DNA of 56,528 nucleotides, filler included, from Sluysia triapertura (taxonomy: Eukaryota), in the NCBI GenBank assembly GCA_046118255.1. It is 4 parts of 4 records of this genome, joined end to end, with 100 filler letters (N's around TTAATTAATTAA, not from the genome) between each part and the next. Parts side by side here need not be neighbours in the genome. Positions count along the whole stretch, not along the records: positions 44,362 to 56,528 come from JBJNIA010133067.1; 3 more parts are not named here. One strand, 5' to 3'. The position numbers and the translations under genes are program-made. The notes beneath the pieces are model-generated. The model was not told where the DNA came from. It made no database searches and saw only the letters and a list, made by a program, of their open reading frames with translations. Shown piece after piece: positions 3,518-47,904 of the stretch. Each line of letters opens with the position of its first letter. Within the stretch, counting starts at the first letter, position 1.

Positions 3518-3676
3518 ATTAGTTACGTGATTGCCAGTGGTGCTTACGGAAATGTATTGAAGGCATATGATAGCAAATCAAAAAGAGATGTAGCTATCAA
3601 AGTGATAGATAAATCACGAGTTTTATCCGAAGGTCCTGGAGCTATTCAGCAATGCAAAGATGAAGTATTAATACAA
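3518..3676 (+). CDS. RSKR: Ser/Thr kinase exon (subdomains I-III), RSKR/SGK494-like
   Basis: TATAG acceptor and GTTTGT donor. ISYVIASGAYGNVLKAYDSKSKRDVAIKVIDKSRVLSEGPGAIQQCKDEVLIQ has a Gly loop and VAIK; QCKDEVLIQ matches the SGK494-type QCKEEVSIQ. Confidence 0.8.
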
Positions 3677-4391
3677 GTTTGTATTTTTTTTAAAGTAAAA
3701 ACTCAAATGAATAAAATATTAATGTAAACATTTATTTGTCATTTGGTAGAGTACTAGCTTTACGCTTGTGTATGCTATTTTGTGAAGAAAGAAAAAGAAT
3801 ATTTTAGTTGTATAATTAATGTTACTAAATTAATCTTGGATGTCAGTTCATGACAAGTATGTGATAACAATAATATGCAAATATTATGAATGATTTGAAT
3901 AATCTTACAATGATAATCAAATGCAGGTCTGTAAATTATTTTTAGATAAATATAAGAATGTACTTTTACTTTTTAATGATAGTGAGAGATTTTGACACAA
4001 TATATTTTTGTTTGATAATTTCGTTTGGATTAAAACCTTTTTCTAAAATTGTCTGATTAGACACAAAATTACAATCTTTTCAGTTCAACATTTTATGAAA
4101 TTAAAATGAAGAATCTACTTATGTAGTTATTGGTAACAATATATTTAAACAAGTTTTTGAATGTGTAGGTTTTGACAATTCTGCTGTGCATATAATATTG
4201 ATTAAATCTGATATTGTTTGTTTTGAATTATAAAATAGTTTGAAATAAATTTATTCCGTTTGAGCAAGACATTTCGTTACATAATTGATTTTGAAATTCG
4301 AAAAAAGCCTAAAGTTACTTTATTAAAACTGAAATATTTTTAACAAATATTATTAACAATTTCTCAATATAAAAATTATTCGATATTTCAG

Positions 4392-8051: not shown

Positions 8052-10445
8052 TAATTAAGAAAATTTTAATATTCAATTTTTTTTATCATAACTCTATATG
8101 TAAATTAATAAAAGTTTGTCTTCATATATCTCTTAAAGACCCTAGTGATAATGTATTATGGAAAAATTTTAATCTTGTAAAATTTTCTTATAAAATAAAA
8201 TATAGTTCCAAGAAAAACCAACTAAATAATCCTAATTTACTCGAATATGTCTAAAAAAATTAAATCCATTAAATTATCTTATCAGAATTTCTTGTTATGT
8301 AATAGATTTAATAAGAATAAAGAATTTATCATAATTTTATTAATGTATTTTAAAGTAACCATTTCGAACCGTTTTTCGGCCATTCAAATTGATGTAAATA
8401 ATTCAAAATAATTTTTCCAAATAAAATCTGTATTTAATTTAATTTTCTCATGCCATTTTAGAATGCCACTTAAAATATTAACCAAAACTTTTTTTACTGT
8501 TCTAAAATATTTATAAAAATAATAAAGTCACTGAAATTCTTTGTTGTAACTTCGATTTCTTATTGCATATTCTTTGTAAATTAATTATTTTAATATAAAA
8601 ATATTACTTAACAATATAGAATCATTAAAAAATTGACACAATTAATTAACTTCTCAAAACTATAAATTTTGTCGCATATATTATGGTCCTATTTTAAGTA
8701 AGGACTTACACTAATTTATATAGTCATAAATTATTAAAATTAATCGAATTTGTATATTTTTGAACGTCATTTGAAGAAGACTGTAAAATTTCATATTTCA
8801 CAACCTATTTTAAAGAAGGATTTAAAATCATTTGTAAAGACTAAAACCATAGTCATTAACGAGTTATGAACTCAAAACGTTGATCAGTATATTTTATAGT
8901 CTTGTTTTAGCAATTATTGTAAACGCATGTATTAACTTGATTTTTCTTTTTTTGATTTTAAATCCCGTGGACAACCCTTAAGGCGAATTCACTAATATGT
9001 ATTTAAAATAAATCTTGATTGCAGTTGCAATTAATGATGTAAGTAAATATGTTAATAATTGTATGCTTAATAATAAATATGCCAAAATAATTGGACATTA
9101 ATTTTTATTTAATAATGCAGATTATAATACTAATACATTATACGTAATTCCATACAGAAAATTGCCATTACAATCGAATATATCAACAAGAATCTGATGT
9201 AAAGATCTAATGTAACACTTTATCTTAAAGAATTACATTATTCTTTATTACAATTATTAAATTATTACAATTAATGTTATGGAAATTTTGAACATCTCTT
9301 AGAAATAAAAAAATTCTGATATCTAAATAAATGTCATTAAGGTATAACAATTTATATAAAATCATAAGTTTCAAAAATATACAACCAGATACGAGAGCAT
9401 ATTAAATTTTTGGAAGATTTTGAAACATTTAATGAGATAACATTTTTCTCTTTAAGAAATATTGTTAGTGATTTATTATAAGTACTTATTTTATTATAAA
9501 TATTAATTGATATTTTTAAATATTTATATACTTCAAAAATAAATAAATTAATTACTGATAATCAATTAGAACAACTTTGACTTAGCAATAGTTATTCAGC
9601 TTAATTTAAATTATTATTTATTTAATGTTTTTAAATAGCAGAAAAATAATTCCAATCTTGATAATATTGTTAAAAATCAAATTAAATTGTTAAGTACTGT
9701 CATATTTTTCATTGTTTTTGATAAAAAAATTAAGATTTAATTGCTGATTTAACTTGTTTACTTTTTCAATTTCTCATTTAATTTTTCATTTGTGAATAAT
9801 ACTTTGGTACTTGTGTCTTATCTATCAAATTATAATTGTTTTTAATAATTTTTGTTTAAACTAGATTATTATTTATTTTTTAGCTTTAGAAATGAAGATT
9901 TTTGATCTTCAAAGAAAGGTGTCATATTGCAAGTAAATTTTATTTATTTATTTATTGCAAAATTAAATATTTTATTAAAAACTACTTATATTATTAGTCA
10001 ATTAGAAATTATAAATAAACATTAAAGAAATAACAAACACATTTTAATTTAAATGAAAATATTTTAAAAGATGCAAATAAAATCAAAGTAATAAACAAAA
10101 TGTAATTTATTTACTAAAACTTTTCAAATATATTTTTTCGATTATAAAATTCGACAATGAGTTGAAATATATTTACATTTTTATTTCTAGTATTCAGTTA
10201 ATTATACCTTGAAATGTTTATTATTGCATTTATTAAAGTTTGGACTAATTAATTGAAATGGATAGTAATTTATTTTTTTATGTAGAAATTTTGATAAATA
10301 CTCATTTTAAAAATAACAAAACAAATCATTCTATAAAGTAGAATTCTATGTAGAACTTAAAAATAAAATATCATTAAATTAACTGCTGAAATAATATATG
10401 TAATTTATCAACATAAACAAAATGTTTAAAAATGATGTTTATAAG

Positions 10446-13400
10446 TTATTTTAATAAAATAAATATCAATTAATTATTAATTTTTATTTGCTAACTAAAA
10501 CATAAACATTCATACATGTACCTATGTAACTAATGAAAGATTTTAATTTATAAACTATGAGTCTCATTGTAAAGCTTAGTTTAGTAAATTACGTTTTTAA
10601 ATTAAAATGCAGCAATAATTTCGAATAAGTGTTAAAATAACCTCTTAATATAAGACTTTCTTTTAGAAAGAAAGAAAATTATAAAAAAGAATATCTTAAA
10701 ATACAAAAGCATTTCTTTTTTCTTATTTTGAAATATTTGATTTTTTTCCATTTTTCCAGCTATAAAATTATAAAACAATTTGTATATCAAATAACTGTAT
10801 TTTTATATTTATTTTAACAGTTACTATTTATATGGAAAACAAAATACTTATAATCAATTTTCGATGTCTTAAATAATGAAACTTTTAAAATACATTCATA
10901 ATAACGTTTTACTTAAAATTATACAAAATTAAAAATTCAAAACTCACAAAAATAATGATTAAATAAATAATCTTTTCAAAAAAGATTTTAACAAATTTTT
11001 CATATTTAAATTACAGAAGTGTTATTTAAATTTAGTTTTACGTATACAATTAAATTTATTAGCATACGTTAATTCAAAAATTTTATCTCTAATAAATTAA
11101 GAACTATTAAAGCTATATTAACATAAACACAAAACATTTTTTCGTTTACCACTTTTTATAATTAATAGCAGGAAAAATCCTAATCTTAAACAGATATCTA
11201 TACGAAATAATAGAGAAATAACAAAAAATATTTCATTAAAATATTAAAACTCGTTTCATTTTAGATAATATTTAATAAACTATATTTTCATTAGTGTCAA
11301 GTTGTACGAGATTAAGAATTATGAAAATTTAAACAATACATATATTGCATAAATTATATAAATTTAAAAGATATAACTATAAATAAATGCATTAAGCTCA
11401 TAAATTTTCAAAATTTCAAAGCTAATTTGTCATCAAAAGTGTACTGATTGAATTAATTTCTGCGTTTATTTTTAAAATTGTATTTTACCTGTAATTCCTA
11501 ATGTAATGAACTTTATATTTCTCGTTGATTCTGAGCAAGAAAAAAATATGAATCTTTTTTTATGAATCTTTTAAATTATTTTAATCACTGAAATAGCAAT
11601 TTTTCTTTTTCTTTCAGATTTGTCACTCTTCACACAACCATTGAAACTTTGAAGTTTCAACACAATGTATTAATGATTTATTATGATTAATTCTTTAAAT
11701 AGATTCTTTAAATAGAATCATTTATTTCCATCAATAAAAATCTCAGCAAGATGGTTGGTCTTTATAAAATGCAGAACTAAACCATGAAAATTTATTTCTG
11801 TTAAAACCAGCATGGAATAGACATTTTTTTATCTATTCAGTGGCTACTATGGTTGTAGATGATTTATGAAAACGAGGAATTCCTTTTGAACTATTTCACA
11901 TTTAGTCGAATTATTTTAAATTATAGAAATCCAGAAGGATACTTCCAATGAAAAATTAATTTTACATTTGGAAGACTTTAATGATTTAATGATTTTTCTG
12001 GTTTCCTTTTACAATAAGTTAATACAAGTAAATACAAGTTTTCAATTTTGATTTCGTCTACAGTATTTTTTAAATCATTAAAAATATAATTTGAATAACT
12101 TGTATTTTTAAATCATCTAAGGCAGGTAATTATAATAATAGAAATAACAATGAATCACCATTCCAGGTTATTAGATTATTTAGTTATTGTCATCGAAACA
12201 TACTGAAGTAGTTAAATAGTTATTAAATTCTTGATAACTTGTATCTCTCAAACAAATTTATTTCTTAAGACATCTAAGCTTGTCCACATAATGACAAATT
12301 ATCTTACTAATTTATTTAATAATATTAAGAAAGAACAAAGAGATACAGATTTTGTTTAATGCCGTATGTAAGATCTATATTAAATCTTCCACTTAACAAA
12401 TTTTGTAGAATTTTGATTATTCTTTAAAGTATCTAATCCAAAAAATTAATTACTCGTTTCTATGATTTTTAATATTTTAATATAGTTAAACAAACAAATA
12501 AAAATAGAATTATCAACCAGAGAAACAAATTGTTCAATCAAATAATGTGCCATTAACTGTAGGATCTATATTTCAATAATCCACGCAATCCAACTTTATT
12601 GCAGCAAACATGTGTGAATTTTATATTTTTTCTGTAAAATTTTGTAATTGATAATAAATGTGCTTAAACATGTATAGGAAAACAAAAGGTGCAAGTACTA
12701 AAATTTTCAACTCACATATCCAATTACATAATGGGAATTAATTGCACATTTTTTGGTATTGTGAATAATTTCTTTTTGTCAGTTTTCTTAAAAGCAAAAC
12801 CAAAATTCACTACAATGAACACTTTTCTGATCAATGCGTTTGTTTTAAATATAAAATTTGATATTTGATATAAAATTGTGTGTCTCATCATGTAGATCCA
12901 CACTAATTTCAGTCAATAGAATATTATAGCAATAATTGTTGGTTTTTCTAAACATATTAAATCTTAACATATTACAATTGTACAAATGTTCCAACCATTT
13001 ATTATTTTAATTTTCCGTTAATGGAGTCTTGATATAATTATTCGTCAATATTAAATTAAGCAATATTTTTAGTATATAATTTATTATTGATTGAAATTTT
13101 ATTAAATTAAATTTAAACTAAAATAAAAGTATTTAAATAAAATTAATTATAAAATTGGAACGAAAGTTTTGTCCGATATAAAATAATATTTATTTAATTA
13201 ATAAAGACAATATGAAGAAATGTTTAGTTAAAATGAATTATTAAATCCTTTTCAAATGTTTAATTTATATCGTATAATTAAATAATTGTTACTGATAGCT
13301 ATCATTTAAAAAATATTATTTTGTGGCTTGTGATGGAGCTTAATCGAGGCGACCTGACGTATTTTTTGTGGAAAGATAGAATGAGTGCTCCAGTAATTGA

Positions 13401-16725: not shown

Positions 16726-16825
16726 NNNNNNNNNNNNNNNNNNNNNNNNNNNNNNNNNNNNNNNNNNNNTTAATTAATTAANNNNNNNNNNNNNNNNNNN
16801 NNNNNNNNNNNNNNNNNNNNNNNNN
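16726..16825. other. Artificial contig linker
   Basis: 44 N + TTAATTAATTAA (stops in all six frames) + 44 N. Confidence 0.97.
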
Positions 16826-27770: not shown

Positions 27771-27870
27771 NNNNNNNNNNNNNNNNNNNNNNNNNNNNNN
27801 NNNNNNNNNNNNNNTTAATTAATTAANNNNNNNNNNNNNNNNNNNNNNNNNNNNNNNNNNNNNNNNNNNN
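27771..27870. other. Artificial contig linker
   Basis: 44 N + TTAATTAATTAA + 44 N. Confidence 0.97.
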
Positions 27871-29827: not shown

Positions 29828-31126
29828 CTACAATATATGATATAATGTGTTAAAATAAAAATAATTTATAAAAATTTATAATTTTTCCTTTTAATTCCTT
29901 TTAAAATTGTGACATTATACAATTACAAAAAAATCAAATCTAAATTTCAAATAAACTTAAAACAGCTCAATGATCTTAACTCACAACTGGCCGCTAAAAA
30001 TTCTTAATCGACTGTTTGATGGCAACACAAACAAAGTTATTCTGTCAAAAAACCTACTTCTACGTTAGCGGCTTCTGGGTTTCGAATAAAAAATGTCGTG
30101 TTACTGCGTCAACGTCCAATAATGAGTTGAAGTACATTTATATTTATAAAAAATTACATCCGAAAATATATTAGTGGCCTTAAATTAAACATCACAATAT
30201 AACCTAAAATCAAAAATAAATGAAAAATAAAAGTGAAACTCAAGAAACAAATATGAATGTAATCAATTAGCAAGTCTATAATTTTACGAATCAAATAACA
30301 TCAGAATAATAATAACTTAAAATTTTATTTAAAAGGTAATGGCAAAAAGAAGACAAATAAATAACTTGAAAGTAAATGTGTAAAAGTAAAAGTAATATGG
30401 CCAAAATAGTATAACACAAAATTAAATAATAAATAAATAAAATTAAGATACAAAGAAAAAAAATTAAAAGTATTATTTCTTTAACAAGTGCTTTGTAGGA
30501 TAAATATTTTAAAAATTTATTTATAGTCAATAGTAAATTTGAATATTTATTTTAGACCTGATTTACATAAATTAAAATCTAACCTAAATACAGACAACGA
30601 AAAATGATATATATTTATATTTTATATTTAAAAGTGCAATTAATTTTTTTTGGTGAAAATCTTTATTTTAAAAATCTAAATTTATTTTAGAAAGAAACAA
30701 GTAAACATTATGTGAAAATAAAGTAGATATATAAAATACTATCTTGGCTATAAATCTTGCTTTTATTAAAAAAATGAATGCGCGATTTCATTCAGAACAA
30801 TATATGTAAAAATAGTAATGCTACTTATTTAACTCTTCAACTGCAGGCAACGTGAAATTGATAAAAATTCATATTTTAAAAAATTGTTTCCTTTTTATAT
30901 TTTTATTTTATGTTTGACGAAAGTATGCAATAATGTCCGATTTTATTGAATAATCAACAATTTGCTCATAGTTAGGGGTTAAAAATTAAATTATAGAATG
31001 CATTGCTATTATAGTACAATCATTTACACAAGTAAATAATATTTGTTCAAAATATTTTAATTATTTATATAAAATTTATATAATAATCTTCAAGAATAAT
31101 TAATAAAAAATATTAAAAATACTAAC

Positions 31127-31360
31127 ACTATATGTACAATCACTATTATCTTGAGAATTTCTTCTATAAGGATAATGAGTATAAAAAAGATGATTTGGAA
31201 TCATTTTCTTTCTCATTCGACAAGGTCCTTCTGAAGAATCCAACATCCATTTATTCAAAGGGTTTGAAGTAAGTGGACCCCATATACCTCTTTCTCGTGT
31301 CAATTCAATTTCGACGCGTTTCCATTTATTTTGAAAAAAATGAAGCATGAAAGTACTTTT
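31127..31360 (-). CDS. WDFY3: WDFY3/ALFY exon (conserved block upstream of PH-BEACH)
   Basis: WKRVEIELTRERGIWGPLTSNPLNKWMLDSSEGPCRMRKKMIPNHLFYTHYPY is close to WDFY3 ELLRERGLWGP..LDKWMLEMTEGPCRMRKKM..FYNHYPY; GT-AG boundaries. Confidence 0.92.
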
Positions 31361-31395
31361 CTTAAGTAATTAAATTAAAACAAATTAAATGGTAC

Positions 31396-34243: not shown

Positions 34244-35298
34244 CAAAATATAAAATTTTTGATTAGGAAATATAAAAATAATCTCCGGAACCAAACAATA
34301 TCAAAAAGTTGCCGTAATATTTAAATAAACTGCGATCTGTTGATTCATAGCATCAAATAATCTCTCATCTTGTTATAAAATGGAATTAATTTTCGTTATG
34401 GCTTCTCAACACTTTATCAACAGCATTCTGAATTTCGGTTGCATTTGTTGGACTAGGTCTGATGGCCTTATATCTAATCTTAATTACTCCAAAAATTCCC
34501 TTAATTGGATTCATTTGTGGTGTATAAAGTGAATGAATTTATAAACAATATAACTGGAATAGGCAGTTATCCATAATCAATAAATAGTCATGGTGACTAT
34601 TGAAGAATGGGAGTAGCTTGGATACATTGAAGTGCTTGAACTTAACTCCATCGTAAGCACCGTTTACCATTTCACAGCAGACAACACTTTGACAGCCAAT
34701 AGCATATTTTAGGCTTTGTGATACCCCTTTATTGGCTTTGACTTGTACAAAAGCCTTTGTATTCCTTTGAGAATATCCATAAGATATTAAAACCAGTTTC
34801 ATCAAGAAATATTAATTTCTCGATTGAGAAACTAAGAATATCCCTGCAGTAGTTGTAACGGAAATTCACTGTTCTTTCCGTGTTTCTTTCAATAGAAACT
34901 AGAGACAGCACCTTGATTTCATTACATGAAAAGGATTGACTTCTAATCACGCCATCACTCTCGAGAGCCTTAACAATGCCTCTTTGAGTAATCGCATTAT
35001 CATTGCTGATAATAGATGCGATTTTGGATCTTATCTCAACATTTTTAGTATGTTTCCTTCGTTTTTGCGAGATAATTTCATTACCAGATAGACCCTTATA
35101 CATCTTCATGGCTAAAGACCTTACGCAAGAGATAAAAATGTTCAGAGATGCAGCGATGGACTTGTTGTCGTTGCCTGCATCTAGATGACTCCTTACGACT
35201 TTCAACAGTTGAGTGGTTACAGTCGTATGTGAATTTTGCATTTTTTATATATTTTTATAAAATGTTTTATATTTCCTAATCAAAAATTTCATATTTTG
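34244..35298 (-). mobile_element. IS630-Tc1 family DNA transposon (DDE_3-type), frameshifted, inside a GNPTAB-like intron
   Basis: Inverted repeats 34241-34277 and 35265-35301 (37 bp, one mismatch) with TA at both ends. Transposase motifs LIFLDETGFN, LLIMDNC and YTPQMNPIK; N-terminal HTH NKSIAASLNIFISCV. Confidence 0.9.
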
Positions 35299-39518: not shown

Positions 39519-40271
39519 AATCAATTTTACACTTAATTTTTTTAGGATCTGCTTCGTTACCGTACATGGATCATAATGTAAATACTTTATGCGAAAAATG
39601 TTTAAACTCTTATACTTATAAAATACTTGAGAGTCAGTTCGCCTAATATGCACGGTTTATACACGGAGACGTGCTATTAGGATTTTATAAAAGAGCTACT
39701 GTTGTGATTGCCAAACTGTGGGTCTGGAGACAAATGAAAACATATAAAATCATAAAATGAAGGAAAAACTGATATAAAGTAATGGATTGGACATGATAAA
39801 CATTGTTGAAATAAGAATTATGAAAGCAAAAGCATCTATAATAGTCTTACCAGTTGAAGAATAACTTGAAATTTCCAAACACCTCTATAGGGGTTTGAGA
39901 CTTTATGGAAGCTTGAGATTGACTTGGGAAACCTTTGGAAACATTACAGTCATTTTGAAGTTATGAACCTTTAGATTTCGGAAGACCTTATTAACCTTTA
40001 CATATTCTTAGAACATCGATAAGCATTTCACCTCCCTTAGTAATTTTATAAATTATTTAAAAGCTTTAAAATAGTTATCGGTATTAAGAATAAGTTTAGT
40101 ATAGTAATAATTAACATGAAAAAGTAGAAAAATGAGTCAGAGAGGTGAATGTGAAAACATCTAGAGACTCCTGAATGCCTTATAAAATATAAAATAACTT
40201 TAGAACCTCAGTAAAAGCTTTAAACATAGAATAAGATTAAGTCAAAAAATAGATTAACCAATTATAAATCA

Positions 40272-43200
40272 TAATTAACTTAATTGAGAAAAAGTACGCT
40301 TTTGTGAATAACTTTTGAATGCGGAATGCTATGTTAATTTTGAAACTGCGTATGTATTTGTTTTGAAAAGACCTTTCGATGAAGGTATGGTTTGACCGAG
40401 TTCACACAAGAAAAGCCTTAATATTGAGTAAAGTCAAATTTTAATTAATTTTTAATTATGGAATGTTGAATTTTTAATACGTAAAATGATGCAAATGTTA
40501 TGAATGGAATATGAGATGATTGCTATGAAAGAGCAGAATCTGTAAGCGAGTTCGAAATGTTTGTAGAATGGTTTGTTTGAGAATAGGAACCTTAAAACTT
40601 TTTTCATTAGAAAATTTGGTGTGAAAAATCGAAATTCAATTAAACTCTCAAAATTGAAATTAAATTCATTATTTTTATGAATGTTAACAATATTGTTGAT
40701 TGTTATTTTAATGTGAGAAGTAATTTAAGTAAAAATAGATTGAGTGGAGTAAAAAGAAATGATGGTTGATAATAAATCAGATTTCTATGTTTTGTGCTTA
40801 ATAAAGTTTGACAGACCGTACCATGTAATTGTCAGAGTTGTTATTGTCGGTCTGATTCTCAAAGAGGTTTGAATGATTTGTGTGAGAGTGTTTGATTGTG
40901 AGACTAGGAATTGATTGGATGATGAGATAGTATTAAATAAAGATTTCTACATTTTTAACAAAAGTAATAACACAATAACAAAAGTAATCACAATGACGAC
41001 GACAACAACAATGATAATATAAGTAATATAAGTAATTAATCTTATTTGAATAATTTTAATATTGTGTTATTTTTAGTTAATTTTTATGCTGTTTTTAAGG
41101 CGAGTTGATAAGAAACTCCCTACACAATTTTTGCTAAAAACTATTATTAAGATAATTTTCTTGTTAAATATTATATTTAGATTATATTTGATTTTAAGCT
41201 GTATTTAAGGTGAGTTGATAAGAAACTCCTTACGAAATTTTTGATAAAGATTATGTTTGATTTTCAGCCATTTTTATGTAATTTTGTAAGAGACTCCCTA
41301 CGCAATTTTTGTTAAGACTATATTTGATGTTTTGTTATTTTTAAGGTAATTAATTGAAAACATTTCGTGTAATTTTTGTTGAAGATTATATTTAAATTGC
41401 ATTTGATTTTCATTCATTTTTAAGGTGAATTGAATAGAAATTTCTTAAGAAATGTATTCTATCAAAATAATAAGTATTTTATCTTTAGAATTTACTGTTA
41501 AGTTTTTCCTTAAAGTTATTCTTATCGAAGAATTTTATTGTAATCGTAATCACTCTTTGTGACGTTGACCAAAAATATTTAAATAAGATAATTACAATTA
41601 ACTTTCTAGATATTGATATTCTTAGTGTCTGTTGCGTCACTCCTGGTTGTTTTGTCATAATTAGATTGAAATATCATTGATTTTATTGTTATTTTTGTCA
41701 TTTTAGTTCTCATTATTTAGTAAAGATTCTTATTGATAATAAATTATATTTCCATTTTTTATTTAATAGTACATTATTGTCTTAGTTTTGATTTGATTTT
41801 CAAGGACTTAAATTTGGGGTACTAGTTAATATTATAAAAGAAGATTACTGCAAAATTATACTTGATATACTGACTATTTAAATTATTAAGGTTTCTTTAA
41901 GCTAATCAAGTTAATATTATTTTAATTTTATTTTTGATTTTATTAAAGGGAAGATAATTTTAATATAAGTTAATATTGTGCTACTTTTATTGTAAGTGGT
42001 TTGATTTTATTTTCGGCCAGTTTTTAGATACTTTTGTGAGAAACTCTCCACGCAGTTTATTTTATCGAAACACTAAATATTTCTACTTTAGATATTACTG
42101 TTAAGTTTTTGAAAGGATCTCTGCCCAAAAATTTTTATTATAATCGTGATTACTTTTTGTTGGTTAACTAAAAATATTTAAGTAGCATAATAATTATTAA
42201 CTTTCTAAATATTGATATTGTTAGTGTCGGTTGCGTCACTCCTGGTTTTTAGTTAGATTGTAGTATTCTTAATATTATTATTAACGCTATTGTTAATTTT
42301 GCCATTTTAGTCATTTTTAGTATTGTTTAGTGGAGAGTCATTAATAACAATAAATTCTAATTTTATTTTTGTTTAATATTAAAGTATTGCCTTATTTTTG
42401 ATTTGATTCTTAAGAACTTAATTTTGGGGGAATAGTTATTAATAGTATTACTGCAAAATTATACTTGATATAGTGACTACTTAAATTACTGAGATTCTTT
42501 TAAGCTAATCAAGATAATATTGAATTATCATAACTAATAATATTTGAAGACGTAACAATAAGTTAAAATAATTAATTATTTAATTAAAATTTTAATTAAC
42601 TTAATTAAGAAATATTACGTTTGTATGAATAACTTTTGAATGAGGAATGCTATGTTAAAATTGTAATTGTGTATGTATCTGTTTTAAATATATCTTCTGA
42701 TGAAAATCATATTTGATCGAGTTCATAGATTTTAATAAATTTTCATATTTAGAATGAAGAAAAGATGATGAAGTGGGTATAAAGTGATTGCTATGAAATA
42801 GGAGAATCCGAACATGAGGTTGAAATGTTTATAAAATCGTTTGTGTGAGAATGAGAATCTTAAATATTTTCCATTAAAAAACTGAGTGTGAGGAATTGAA
42901 AATTAACTAAACTGTAAAAACCAAAGTTCAGTTAAACATTTTTAAGTATATAAATAATAATTGTTATTTTATTGTAAGAAGTGATTCATGAAAAAATAAG
43001 TCTTTATTGTTAATCGAATTGTTATGTTTTGCTTGACAGGTCATGACATGTAAATTTCAAAGTCGTTTTAGTCGGTGTTGATGATTATGTAAGTGTAATT
43101 CCTGATTGTGAGTTTAAGAGTGATTGGACGACACAAAGATATGAAAGCGAATACTTAAAAATTTTTTAACACAATCGTATCGTACAGTATTGAAACGAAG

Positions 43201-44261: not shown

Positions 44262-44361
44262 NNNNNNNNNNNNNNNNNNNNNNNNNNNNNNNNNNNNNNN
44301 NNNNNTTAATTAATTAANNNNNNNNNNNNNNNNNNNNNNNNNNNNNNNNNNNNNNNNNNNN
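44262..44361. other. Artificial contig linker
   Basis: 44 N + TTAATTAATTAA + 44 N. Confidence 0.97.
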
Positions 44362-44484
44362 TATTATTATAATTTATATAATCTGACTGTAGTTTTGATA
44401 TTATATCAAATATACTGAGGTTTTGAGTTTATTCAATTGTTGATTTTTGATTTAATAGTTTGGGAAGATTAAAAAATATTAAAA

Positions 44485-45630
44485 GACACAACATAATGGT
44501 GCTACTAAATCTGGGTTAGTTATTGCTACAGCTAATTTAGTTCTTAATATTTCCTTGTTTAATTGGCAGTCTCTAGCTATCATAGCTTGATAAACTTTTT
44601 CCAACGACATAAGTCCTAAGTGATAGTAAAATCAATTTTATTATTAAAATATGTTTAATTGTAAATTCTTTGTGTCTATTCCTTTCTTGGCTTTAGTATT
44701 GTCTTTTCTGATAAATATATTCCTTGATAGTTAGTTTACGTGATTTCTTGTCCAAATCTAATTACTAATTTCTTTGATACAAATATTAATCCATCTTCTT
44801 CTTTATTTGCCATTAAAATTGTTGGAGATTCAATTTGGTGAAGTCTTTTTCTTTCAGGTATATCTAAATTATCCTTATAAATTTGCTTTTTATTTATTTC
44901 TTCTACAGCTAATTCATCCTCATTTTGATACATAAATACTGAACTTAATTTGTTTTAAGAATATTAATGGACACTGTTATTTTTCCAATTCATATATAAG
45001 TATAGATTCGCCAGTGTCACAAATTGTTTGATCGCTCCTACAAAAAGGTCTAGACATCATAGTACCTTTTTCTAAATTAAAAATTTCATTAAAAGATTTT
45101 AAACTTACTACAAATGTTTCTTGAGCTACAACATTGTGATAAATCTTTCCTTCATATTCTATTGATCCTCTTTCGCAAGTACCGTCGATTAATACATTAC
45201 CAGCTGTTCCAATATTATAAATTAGTTTCTCGTTGTTTTTAATTCTTAATTTATCTCCTTTGTTTAAACTTATGTATCCAGGTTCATATGCATCACGAAA
45301 ATTGTTCGGTGATATTTTAAAATGTTTTAGTATGTTCGATATATCGATAATTGAAGAATGACTGTGATGTCAACAATACCAAATAACCACAGATCTTTTA
45401 ACTAGACATTCTCTAACTAATGTCGTCACCAGAATTCCTTCTTGATATACATTTAATACTTTCATATCTTTTATTTTGACTCTATTTGGACTTGAGTCAG
45501 GAAAATCTTCGGTATCTAATAAAGAGAACATTCTTCCAATTTGGGGTTGGGTACAATCAAAAGCTTGTATAGCATTAGTTTTATTGATTCCGAATAATGC
45601 CAATAAAACAATTATAAATAACATATTATT
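44485..45630 (-). pseudogene. Chuvirus-type (class III/gB-like) viral glycoprotein, decayed and 3'-truncated; endogenous viral element or retrotransposon env
   Basis: Signal peptide MLFIIVLLALFGINKTNA, then IQAFDC..FSLLDTED..VYQ..VRECLVKRSVVIWYC*HHSHSS..DGTCERG..NVVAQ..C..CDTG..VYQAMIARDCQLNKEILRTKLAVAITNPDLVA. This is colinear with chuviral G motifs GYDC/SLLD/CGxHSH/GxCxG/VVVQ/LY..C.LE..L..LA..PD.FA. Confidence 0.8.
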
Positions 45631-46654
45631 TATTAAAGTTCCAAATTGCGGGAATGATCCATTTGTATTTCCTTTATTGTTATTATTAATTAGTCTGGAT
45701 ATCGTATTAAGTGGTTCATTTAAAATATTCTTTTCTTCTTTTTCTTTATCTTTGTCTATTTTTTCTTTAGTTAAGAGTGTTGCTTTATTACATTGAAATA
45801 TTATATAAGCCATTATTATTTTAAGTCTGTCTCTGTTAATTCCAGCGTTAATCTGTTTATTTATTATGTTTTTATATTGACCATTATCTATAAAGTCATT
45901 TAAGTCCGTATTCTTATATTTTTCTTCCATGACTTTAATTATCTTGGTTAATGCAGCTTTGTATTCCTTTAATTCAAGTAAAAGTGTTTTTATACTTATC
46001 AAAGTTAGAAAATTTATTAGATAGTAGAGCGTAAATTATAGTTTTGGTACTTAAAGTTTCTTCTATGTTCTTATAGTTAATTTTTGTTAAATCAATAGGT
46101 TTTCTATGTATTGGGATTGATATTATCGTTTCGTCATCATTATTCTTTCTAGGTCTACCTGACCTTCTTTTAAAAGTATTTGTTTCTTTATCTTCGGTTT
46201 CAATATGTGAATTTTTATTCAAATCTATTATGTATTCAGTATAATCATCATTATCATTTGTAATATATATGATTTTACTTTCATTATGATTATCTATAAC
46301 TTTATTATCTACCATTAATTCTCTTGGTAGTTAACGCGGGGTTCTATCTAAATCAACATCATTATCATCATTTATTAATTCATCTAATTTTCTTAAATCA
46401 TCTGAAGGCTTAGTACAAGCCATTAAAACTGCGGAAGTCATTGATGTTTCCTCATGGCTTCCATTCATTGATGGATAACCGTAATCATTTATGTATTCAT
46501 TAGGTAATAATTTTCTGTCATAAAAATATAAATCAACATCATTAATATCAGAGTCATTTGACTTGAGTAATTCTATAATATCTTAAGTAATTGAAGTAAC
46601 TGGGAGTTCCATAGTAATATTCAAAGCATTATTAATAATTATACTTATTCTCAT
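45631..46654 (-). pseudogene. N-terminal part of the same decayed reading frame: ubiquitin-like domain, acidic linker, AT-hook-like RRSGRPRK, helical region
   Basis: One frame runs from ATG 46654 to ~46000 with two TAA stops. A single frameshift then enters ORF 45370-46002, which runs straight into the glycoprotein. Confidence 0.6.
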
Positions 46655-46862
46655 TACTTCATTAGGGGTTTCTTTTCTTTCCTTTTGTCCTATTTTTCGT
46701 AATAATTTTCACCTATTTTTTTCTGATCAATGACGGTTTTAAAATTTTGAAAATATTAATATAAAAAATAACTCATAAAACTACACAAATATGAAATATT
46801 TTGATAAAATGAGTTTCTATATTATACTCGTAAAATAAAAACAATAATTATTCAAAAAATAC

Positions 46863-47087
46863 CTATAAGTACTATGAAGTCTTAGTAATCCCTGTCCAGC
46901 TCCAGTACCACCAGGATATAATGATCTAAATGCTTGACCTAGTAATTCAGCATTTTGACTTCCTTTTCTAGTCAATTCTCCACCCCATTTTACTATTAGT
47001 AATAATGAGTTTTTATTTTTCTTTATATACCTCATTTGCACTTTACGATTTAGTCCACTAAAATGTCCATATAGTTCAAGAACTGTT
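46863..47087 (-). CDS. PPIP5K: PPIP5K/VIP1 exon (histidine phosphatase domain)
   Basis: [55 protein letters not shown]; phase-2 acceptor matches the upstream exon. Confidence 0.95.
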
Positions 47088-47409
47088 CTAAATTAAAACT
47101 TTAATTTTAAAAATAATCGTTATTAAATTAAATTTTAACATTAATTAATATTACTGAAGCACCAAAAATAATTATACATAATAATATAATATGACGACCA
47201 TACTACAATCATAATAAGAATTTAAGAGGATACACATGTAATAATGACAAAAATATAACCATACAAATATTTTAATAATATTATGGCAGATAATCATAAA
47301 AGTTATCGTTCCACAGGTATAGAAAATCATAAAAATTTGAAAAATACAGAAGTAGATAGTCACAAAAGTTCGCATAATTATAAAACGTATGCCAATCGTT
47401 TAATCGTTT

Positions 47410-47470
47410 AAGCAACACCTAAAGGTTCATTTTCTTAAAGTACTATACCCTTAAGACCACTATCATTAAA
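47410..47470 (+). mobile_element. Penelope-like RT scrap
   Basis: PK(V)H..IPLRPL resembles the Penelope PKIHK..PLRPI motif. Short and frameshifted. Confidence 0.3.
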
Positions 47471-47904
47471 AGAGACTGACATATAAGGACAATGTAGATA
47501 TTGATATTCCAAGAAACTTAAAATGTGACGTAATTATTGCAGGAGCGAAATTTGGTTCATTAAGTTCAAATTTGTCAAATTATTTTAAAAATATAAGAAT
47601 TACATCATGTAAAAGTCAACCACATAAGTATCAGGAAAGCCATTACCTAAAAAACTAAAAAACAGAAAATCATTAACGAGAAAATATAGATTGAAAAAAT
47701 AGGACCTCCACATGACAAATACAAGGACACATAATTTAAGTAAAATACCAAAAAGTTTGTTTTTATTTAAGTGCAATTAATTACTTTTTATTTATCATTA
47801 AACTATAAAAAATAGTCATAATGGACTATTTGTGTTATTAACATAGTGTAATGTTCAAAAGTTCCGGACAAAAATGTATTATTGAAAATGTATTACTGAT
47901 GTCA

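Follow-up and report, generated by a model that had tools for sequence, protein, structure and literature searches.

A decayed, probably Burro-like Ty3/gypsy fragment with ubiquitin-like and AT-hook elements ahead of a gB-type env in a PPIP5K intron of Sluysia triapertura

The Burro/GYPSM1 elements of planarians are giant Ty3/gypsy LTR retrotransposons, with copy numbers in the thousands, in which Ubi/SUMO-like, BCL2-like and env regions are located in frame between gag and pol (PMC6431247, Arkhipova and Yushenova 2019, citing Grohme 2018 and Jurka 2007 for Burro/GYPSM1). Their env is similar to mononegavirus fusion proteins, and decaying Burro fragments with stops and frameshifts are present in Dugesia japonica (PMC6431247). 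Burro1 is described from land and freshwater planarians in the available part of PMC13465017, which also refers to an anti-apoptotic IAP region in this element (Lee et al. 2026, as cited there), and the accessible text of PMC8532177 describes Burro1 as expressed and PIWI-controlled. A related arrangement is found in the GAG-ENV-POL errantiviruses of Platyhelminthes, Nematoda and Bryozoa, which have an HSV/gB-type ENV and do not form one clade; in the available portions of that study, ubiquitin, Bcl-2 and AT-hook are not mentioned in either main text or supplements (PMC13524379, Chary and Hayashi 2026).

Glycoproteins of the same class are present in the Jingchuvirales and as endogenous copies (PMC7642597, available part), where the viral G stands alone as a protein of some 650 residues and has its signal peptide at the N-terminus (PMC10084718, available part). 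They are also found in the Anakin BEL/Pao retrotransposons of mosquitoes, which share a chuvirus-like glycoprotein with the family studied here and differ from it in having a BEL/Pao pol. Troyka was considered and set aside as not relevant, judging from the available part of PMC12440569.

The window, a 56,528-nucleotide stretch of Sluysia triapertura DNA, contains three spacers of the same format (16726-16825, 27771-27870 and 44262-44361) and is likely made up of four artificially joined contigs, so sequences on either side of a spacer may not be true neighbours. The minus strand of the region of interest was read in all three frames. The env-bearing fragment lies inside the intron that follows a host PPIP5K exon and has the same orientation as the gene: the splice donor GT at 46862 comes directly after the exon (47092-46863), and the fragment begins about 115 bases from this donor site. 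A second PPIP5K exon was found by Pfam and tblastn at 51245-50976 on the minus strand, and the exon expected next after the first is absent from the window. The first exon is at best 55% identical to any protein found. As a single contig of public run X1 covers 46669-47850 with zero differences (depth 14), the junction of exon, intron and element is real in that run. At the other end, the sequence between the env break and the contig end has no env similarity by tblastn, and its bin (44381-44496) has the highest summed depth in X1. Since the contig joint at 44361-44262 adjoins it, the absence of pol beside the fragment says little.

Table 1. Coordinates of the features in and around the env fragment, as positions in the window.
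Feature	Position	Strand	Basis or remark
End of helical domain and ubiquitin-like domain of the gag-env spacer	46475..46747	-	profile from relatives
AT-hook-like motif, basic residues around GRP, in low-complexity linker	46145..46171	-	pattern search
Likely Bcl-2-like domain remnant (middle helices)	45763..45972	-	weak profile match; position as in relatives
Internal env signal peptide	45571..45639	-	hydropathy; putative cleavage site
gB-type (class III) fusion glycoprotein, N-terminal part	44494..45570	-	PF24664; tblastn of relatives
High-copy non-env sequence	44362..44493	.	between env break and contig end at 44362
N44 - 12 bases - N44 spacer	44262..44361	.	read as artificial contig joint
PPIP5K (Vip1-type kinase/phosphatase) exon, host	46863..47092	-	PF00328; tblastn with PPIP5K proteins

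Several other features were observed elsewhere in the window. Host exons are a neurobeachin/WDFY-like exon at 31100-31369 on the minus strand (DUF4800, E 6e-7) and one at 3518-3727 on the plus strand that is protein-kinase-like by eye. A minus-strand ORF at 34729-35244 ends in an FLDETG motif and in this resembles a Tc1/IS630 transposase remnant; Pfam gave no transposase match for it. The non-coding stretch 40200-42900, on the far side of the contig joint from the env fragment, contains imperfect direct repeats spaced by about 600 and 2300 bases and has a GC skew.

The fragment consists of a single minus-strand coding track of about 2.3 kb (46747-44494), split into four frame pieces that were translated separately with stops read as X. 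This agrees with the preliminary description, made from the sequence alone, of one minus-strand frame broken by stops and frameshifts. In order, it encodes a ubiquitin-like domain (Ubl), an AT-hook motif and a weakly matching Bcl-2-like remnant, followed by an internal signal peptide that leads into the N-terminal half of a gB-type env. In-frame stops are located in the Ubl part (46741, 46729, 46711 and 46585), upstream of the AT-hook-like motif (46333) and in the env part (45372, 44979 and 44738), and a frameshift is found near 45987, just upstream of the Bcl-2-like remnant. The env part itself falls into frame pieces at about 45570-44935, 44880-44628 and 44631-44494. The feature had been placed at 44485..46654; it is real, and the similarity to relatives runs from about 46747 to 44494, where tblastn matches to env cease. 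Because the similarity continues upstream of the ATG at 46654, this codon is not the start, and the fragment begins mid-polyprotein without a start codon of its own.

As had been noted at the outset, gag, pol and LTRs are missing beside the fragment: two rounds of tblastn, using first 17 and then 9 related proteins, detected neither gag nor pol nor a further piece of env in the window, and no LTR was found there. This is expected of a copy that begins mid-polyprotein, breaks off mid-env about 130 bases before the contig joint and belongs to an abundant family. The copy lacks a start, gag, pol and an env anchor and has at least eight in-frame stops and several frameshifts; we infer that it is dead, a truncated and mutated leftover within the intron.

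Read data place this stretch within a repeat family. Four public runs contain part of it, three of which (X2-X4) have the repeat without the PPIP5K exon and were left out of the evidence; 9341 contigs of X1 map to it. In X1, the 19 element bins between 44497 and 46700 have a summed depth, which is not a copy count, of 1.6e4 to 3.1e5 (median 1.1e5), and the two exon bins one of 21-25; the step falls in bin 46701-46816. The element depth exceeds that of the neighbouring exon by a factor of hundreds to thousands, which marks the stretch as part of a repeat family that is diverged and very abundant. Contigs of X1 depart from the window sequence at 44494 (29 contigs) and 45755 (19 contigs), so other copies differ at the env break and at the missing end of the Bcl-2-like domain.

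Neither the leader nor the third frame piece has a Pfam match, and when the leader was compared pairwise with relatives, the best scores (1.6 and 7.3 bits) fell short of significance; only profiles reached it. A Ubl profile built from four relatives, with the window excluded, matches the leader at 14.4 bits, a score reached in 0 of 1000 shuffles. A second profile, also excluding the window, has its best match in all six frames at 46747-46475 (13.2 bits), with the next unrelated place in the window at 3.8 bits, and its score of 15.0 bits for the leader was reached in 0 of 2000 shuffles. That lesser match, at 8142-8270 (E 0.029; 3.8 bits), was rejected as compositional. Both profiles also recover sequences that were not used to build them: the four-relative profile finds the metagenome loci L001 and L002 (E 7e-20 and 9e-9), and the second finds the relative P0007 (E 2e-5).

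The identity of this domain is addressed by database comparisons of the relatives. The Ubl segment of L002 matches PF00240 (E 0.0016, under the curated cut-off) and, in the PDB, gives 45 of 46 rows that are ubiquitin-like by name (best E 0.0022); for profile A7, all 24 rows are (best E 0.015). Although each of the L002 matches is below curated cut-offs, they are consistent with a ubiquitin-like domain. The model of the P0015 spacer predicts a strand-strand-helix-strand arrangement at this position with low confidence (pLDDT about 55-64), and fold searches with this model left the Ubl part uncovered. A conserved three-helix domain of no clear family is located directly before the Ubl in P0014 (415-470), P0015 (399-460), P0019 (967-1025) and L002 (1732-1935). 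The AT-hook-like motif, without a Pfam match of its own, recurs at the equivalent position in P0009, P0012, P0014, P0015, P0098 and L002. The Ubl and AT-hook leader proposed earlier was thus borne out by the profile match and by the motif at 46171-46145; the same account missed the Bcl-2-like remnant located between the AT-hook and the signal peptide.

In the window this remnant gives a weak match. The Bcl-2-like profile finds its best place in the window there, yet at only 5.1 bits, and the 6.7 bits scored by the piece on its own were reached by 20 of 2000 shuffles (69 of 1000 with the first profile). The BH2-like W..GGW end of the relatives is absent from it. In the relatives themselves, Pfam Bcl-2 gives weak matches in 3 of 27 proteins, and a seven-sequence profile matches Bcl-xL over BH1-BH2 (E 7.7e-5). 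The helical bundle predicted in the spacer model (pLDDT 55 overall, 70-86 in the Bcl-2-like domain) was compared with known folds: all 40 Foldseek matches listed belong to the Bcl-2 family, the best at E 0.026, and a VIA comparison with canarypox CNP058 gave Z 7.4 (rmsd 3.6 over 114 aligned residues). Unrelated helical proteins score alike in VIA for another part of the same model, and both the Foldseek E of 0.026 and a Z under 8 are below the usual thresholds for a fold match taken alone; a protein atlas gave no usable match for the Bcl-2-like part of P0015. A Bcl-2-like domain directly before env is nevertheless supported in the relatives, with the BH2-like end 48-81 residues before the mature env start in nine of nine, and the window likely retains a weak remnant of it at the expected place. 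NWGR is the canonical BH1 motif. It is not kept in the alignment of the relatives' domains, so BH3 binding does not necessarily follow from a Bcl-2 fold.

The signal peptide was expected some 340 codons in, and a hydrophobic segment is indeed located about 344 codons behind the ATG at 46654. Its best 15-residue Kyte-Doolittle mean is 2.6 and it precedes the AFDC motif (which starts at 45564) by 24 residues, similar to the hydrophobic segments (1.1-2.8) found 21-32 residues before AFDC in all nine relatives examined. The glycoprotein family that had been recognised from motifs is the one found by Pfam: the env piece matches PF24664 (Monjiviricetes_fusion) over profile positions 3-207 of 653 (E 3e-18), and the fourth, last frame piece matches positions 296-360 (E 8e-5). 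In tblastn, relatives are 25-72% identical to the window env per piece, and seven of the nine cysteines invariant in ten relatives over this stretch are present, two being absent. The env breaks off in the central helix region and has no transmembrane anchor. Its nearest relative, P0005, is about 37-38% identical over the env piece. The model of P0005 (mean pLDDT 63) matches chuvirus G at E 2e-35 and herpesvirus gB at E 2.3e-11, the latter with TM-scores of only 0.2-0.35; as modelled, the P0005 env is a class III fusion protein with the herpesvirus gB fold. The window env thus shares the PF24664 family with the Jingchuvirales glycoproteins, and, as far as the P0005 model indicates, the gB-like class III fold.

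When 1.84 billion representatives were searched with the env piece, 93 relatives had E<=0.001, the best of them at 2e-43. Gag or pol domains are present in 7 of the 11 best. Among 27 scanned relatives, env is followed by protease (PR), RT, RNase H (RH) and integrase (IN) in four, as is also the case in P0098 and L001, and a gag domain or zinc knuckle precedes env in four. Env before pol in one polyprotein is seen in P0007, P0009, P0028, P0030, P0098 and L001, and gag before env in P0014, P0015, P0030, P0034 and L002. The relatives' order is gag, Ubl, AT-hook, Bcl-2-like, env, PR, RT, RH, IN, mostly in one reading frame. The RT motifs of the polyproteins examined are of what we take to be the Ty3/gypsy kind in 7 of 7. 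The nearest relatives are thus Ty3/gypsy polyproteins, of which the window itself contains only the part from spacer to env, and the link to pol in this organism is indirect. Accessory domains were sought in the 24 of 94 relatives with at least 60 residues before env: Ubl was found in five, the hook in four and the Bcl-2-like domain in eight, most of these positives being members of the profiles. All three occur together only in P0015 among the 24, and also in L002.

The two metagenome loci were found with alignment A5, which gave none in viral contigs and none in genome contigs. Searches with P0006 (metagenome contigs) and P0007 (genome contigs) found no loci; among longer proteins, word-seeded searching gave no match to the env piece, and the P0015 spacer recovered only P0015 itself in a search of this kind. 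L001 has one frame of at least 3426 codons that is open at its 5' end and encodes Ubl, Bcl-2-like and env regions, proteases, and RT, RH and IN, as well as other membrane segments. In L002, a gag that has a CCHC knuckle is followed by Ubl, AT-hook and Bcl-2-like domains; beyond a TGA, the same frame continues into env. Both contigs are cut, and no LTR pair was found in either.

These relatives have some features of their own. The TGA at L002:3058-3060, which parts the gag-Ubl-Bcl-2-like frame from env and is absent in the tree sister P0006, may act as a leaky stop or have arisen by simple mutation. In L001, a separate ORF after pol (10617-12107) matches RNase_T, a DEDD exonuclease (E 1.4e-5), and is followed by a short coiled-coil ORF. 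In the polyproteins of L001 (2-10282), P0009, P0014 and P0098, aspartic-protease-like repeats occur several times. Additional signal-peptide/membrane segments are present as well, with one pair located between env and pol and another behind the integrase, which suggests further small membrane proteins. The gag-env-pol polyprotein P0007 is filed under a Flavobacteriaceae metagenome bin, likely owing to eukaryotic contamination.

The env tree has 66 rows, namely the window and 65 of 95 candidates, the other 30 having been dropped for covering fewer than 170 profile positions. A set of 21 rows (97/94) includes the window together with nine unlabelled and 11 retroelement-labelled rows, two of the latter (P0005 and P0019) having no Pfam gag or pol match of their own. 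The place of the window within this set is not resolved, with an end branch of 1.11. Three named chuvirus G proteins are located in a separate set of 31 rows (99/91). Judged by sequence, the closest relatives of the window env are Ty3/gypsy polyproteins and not chuvirus G proteins.

The stretch is a broken internal piece of a highly repeated element, very probably a Ty3/gypsy LTR retrotransposon of the Burro-like kind with env in frame between gag and pol. Because its Ubl, fusion protein and likely Bcl-2-like remnant follow the Burro layout, a dead copy of a known kind is likely. Both have a Ubl ahead of env and a high copy number; between the two regions, where Burro has its BCL2-like domain, the window has a weak and likely remnant. 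The ankyrin repeats of Burro1 are also found in the relative P0098 (4844 aa). The two differ in that the window contains only a 2.3 kb internal piece, with no MATH, BIR, ankyrin, dUTPase or LTRs in view, and in the AT-hook, which is present in the window and its relatives and is named 0 times in PMC6431247. With the GAG-ENV-POL errantiviruses, the relatives share env between gag and pol, the gB fold and a gypsy pol. The rows Smed_errantivirus_1-6 of Platyhelminthes_C1a share by eye the motif series VYQE, RECxV, CGxHS, GxCxG, GES, TPT and TNY with the window env, and a search of the accessible supplement for five short motifs found only these six Schmidtea rows and one mosquito BEL row; the bryozoan env rows available there look different by eye (PMC13524379). 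Membership of Burro proper is probable, a placement that draws on architecture and on the by-eye Schmidtea comparison rather than on alignment to a named Burro sequence.

The preliminary description proposed the env polyprotein of an undescribed enveloped retroelement, with an architecture it did not recognise. The gypsy relatives uphold the env polyprotein, whereas the architecture is already described, in Burro/GYPSM1 (PMC6431247) and in the GAG-ENV-POL errantiviruses (PMC13524379).

An alternative that we regard as unlikely, and as the strongest of those considered, is that a gag-env-pol gypsy lineage other than Burro acquired or retained these accessory domains in a host outside the planarians. 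Its mode of action would be unchanged, and the known range of the architecture would become wider. The low identity of the PPIP5K exon to anything found, the 37% identity of the window env to its nearest relative, its end branch in an unresolved set, and the account of GAG-ENV-POL elements as not one clade in the available part of PMC13524379 all point in this direction. They are set against the succession of Ubl, Bcl-2-like domain and env, which is that of Burro (PMC6431247), the by-eye motif series in the six Schmidtea env rows (PMC13524379, available part) and the reported presence of Burro1 in both land and freshwater planarians (PMC13465017, available part).

Far less probable is a piece of a stand-alone endogenous chuvirus-like negative-strand RNA virus, its leader joined by chance or by host capture. 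The PF24664 match, the named chuvirus G proteins among the 93 relatives, the match of the P0005 model to the chuvirus G fold and the lack of pol in the window are all compatible with such an origin. The named G proteins, however, have a best E of 1.6e-9 compared with 2e-43 for the top relative, begin with a signal peptide where the window env is internal, and group apart in the tree; the leader has a Ubl that matches the gypsy polyprotein spacer, the stretch is repeated many times, and no relative was found in viral contigs. The novel endogenous virus offered earlier as an option is accordingly disfavoured, since chuvirus G falls in a separate tree set and the relatives have a gypsy pol.

Similarly improbable is the env of an Anakin-type BEL/Pao element or the gB-like fusogen of a Maverick/Polinton. 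Mavericks carry gB-type fusogens. BEL/Pao elements do so too, according to the available part of PMC13524379, but the nearest relatives here have env upstream of a gypsy-type PR-RT-RH-IN, unlike Anakin, and no BEL or Maverick domain was found in the 27 proteins scanned; the tree is without BEL or Maverick sequences. The pol of these relatives points to Ty3/gypsy rather than to Anakin, which had been named beforehand as a case of such captured env genes. A domesticated host gene or alternative PPIP5K exon, to which the shared strand and the mere 115 or so bases behind the donor site might point, has next to no probability given the many stops and frameshifts, the two absent and otherwise invariant cysteines, the missing start and the high copy number.

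For a Burro-like fragment, the layout suggests how an intact element could work. One long RNA would be read into a giant polyprotein, of which the Gag-Ubl-AT-hook-Bcl-2-like part would stay cytosolic, while the internal signal peptide would direct the env ectodomain into the ER. The env membrane anchor (at residue 1028 in L001) would bring the chain back into the cytosol, where protease, RT, RNase H and integrase would lie; host signal peptidase together with the element's proteases would release the parts. Env would then supply enveloped particles with a fusion protein, and the accessory domains may influence cell death, ubiquitin and chromatin pathways of the host. Since the BH2-like end is so close to env, the signal peptide could stay on the Bcl-2-like product as its tail anchor. 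That the env signal peptide serves in this double role, so that env synthesis would leave a captured Bcl-2-fold protein bound to the membrane on the cytosolic side together with Gag, Ubl and AT-hook, and that the module extends beyond planarians, including to this AT-rich genome, is a tentative and rather doubtful proposal.

The window brings further support, in sequence and fold, for Ubl and Bcl-2-like domains in Burro-like elements, ties the Ubl/Bcl-2-like spacer to the gB-type class of env and adds an AT-hook, in a module that is present in several metagenome contigs. A question of cell death has already been opened for the Burro1 IAP region (Lee et al. 2026, via the available part of PMC13465017). 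If the host were not a planarian, or if the Bcl-2-like domain were membrane-anchored and active, the finding would bear on the manipulation of host cell death by enveloped retrotransposons.
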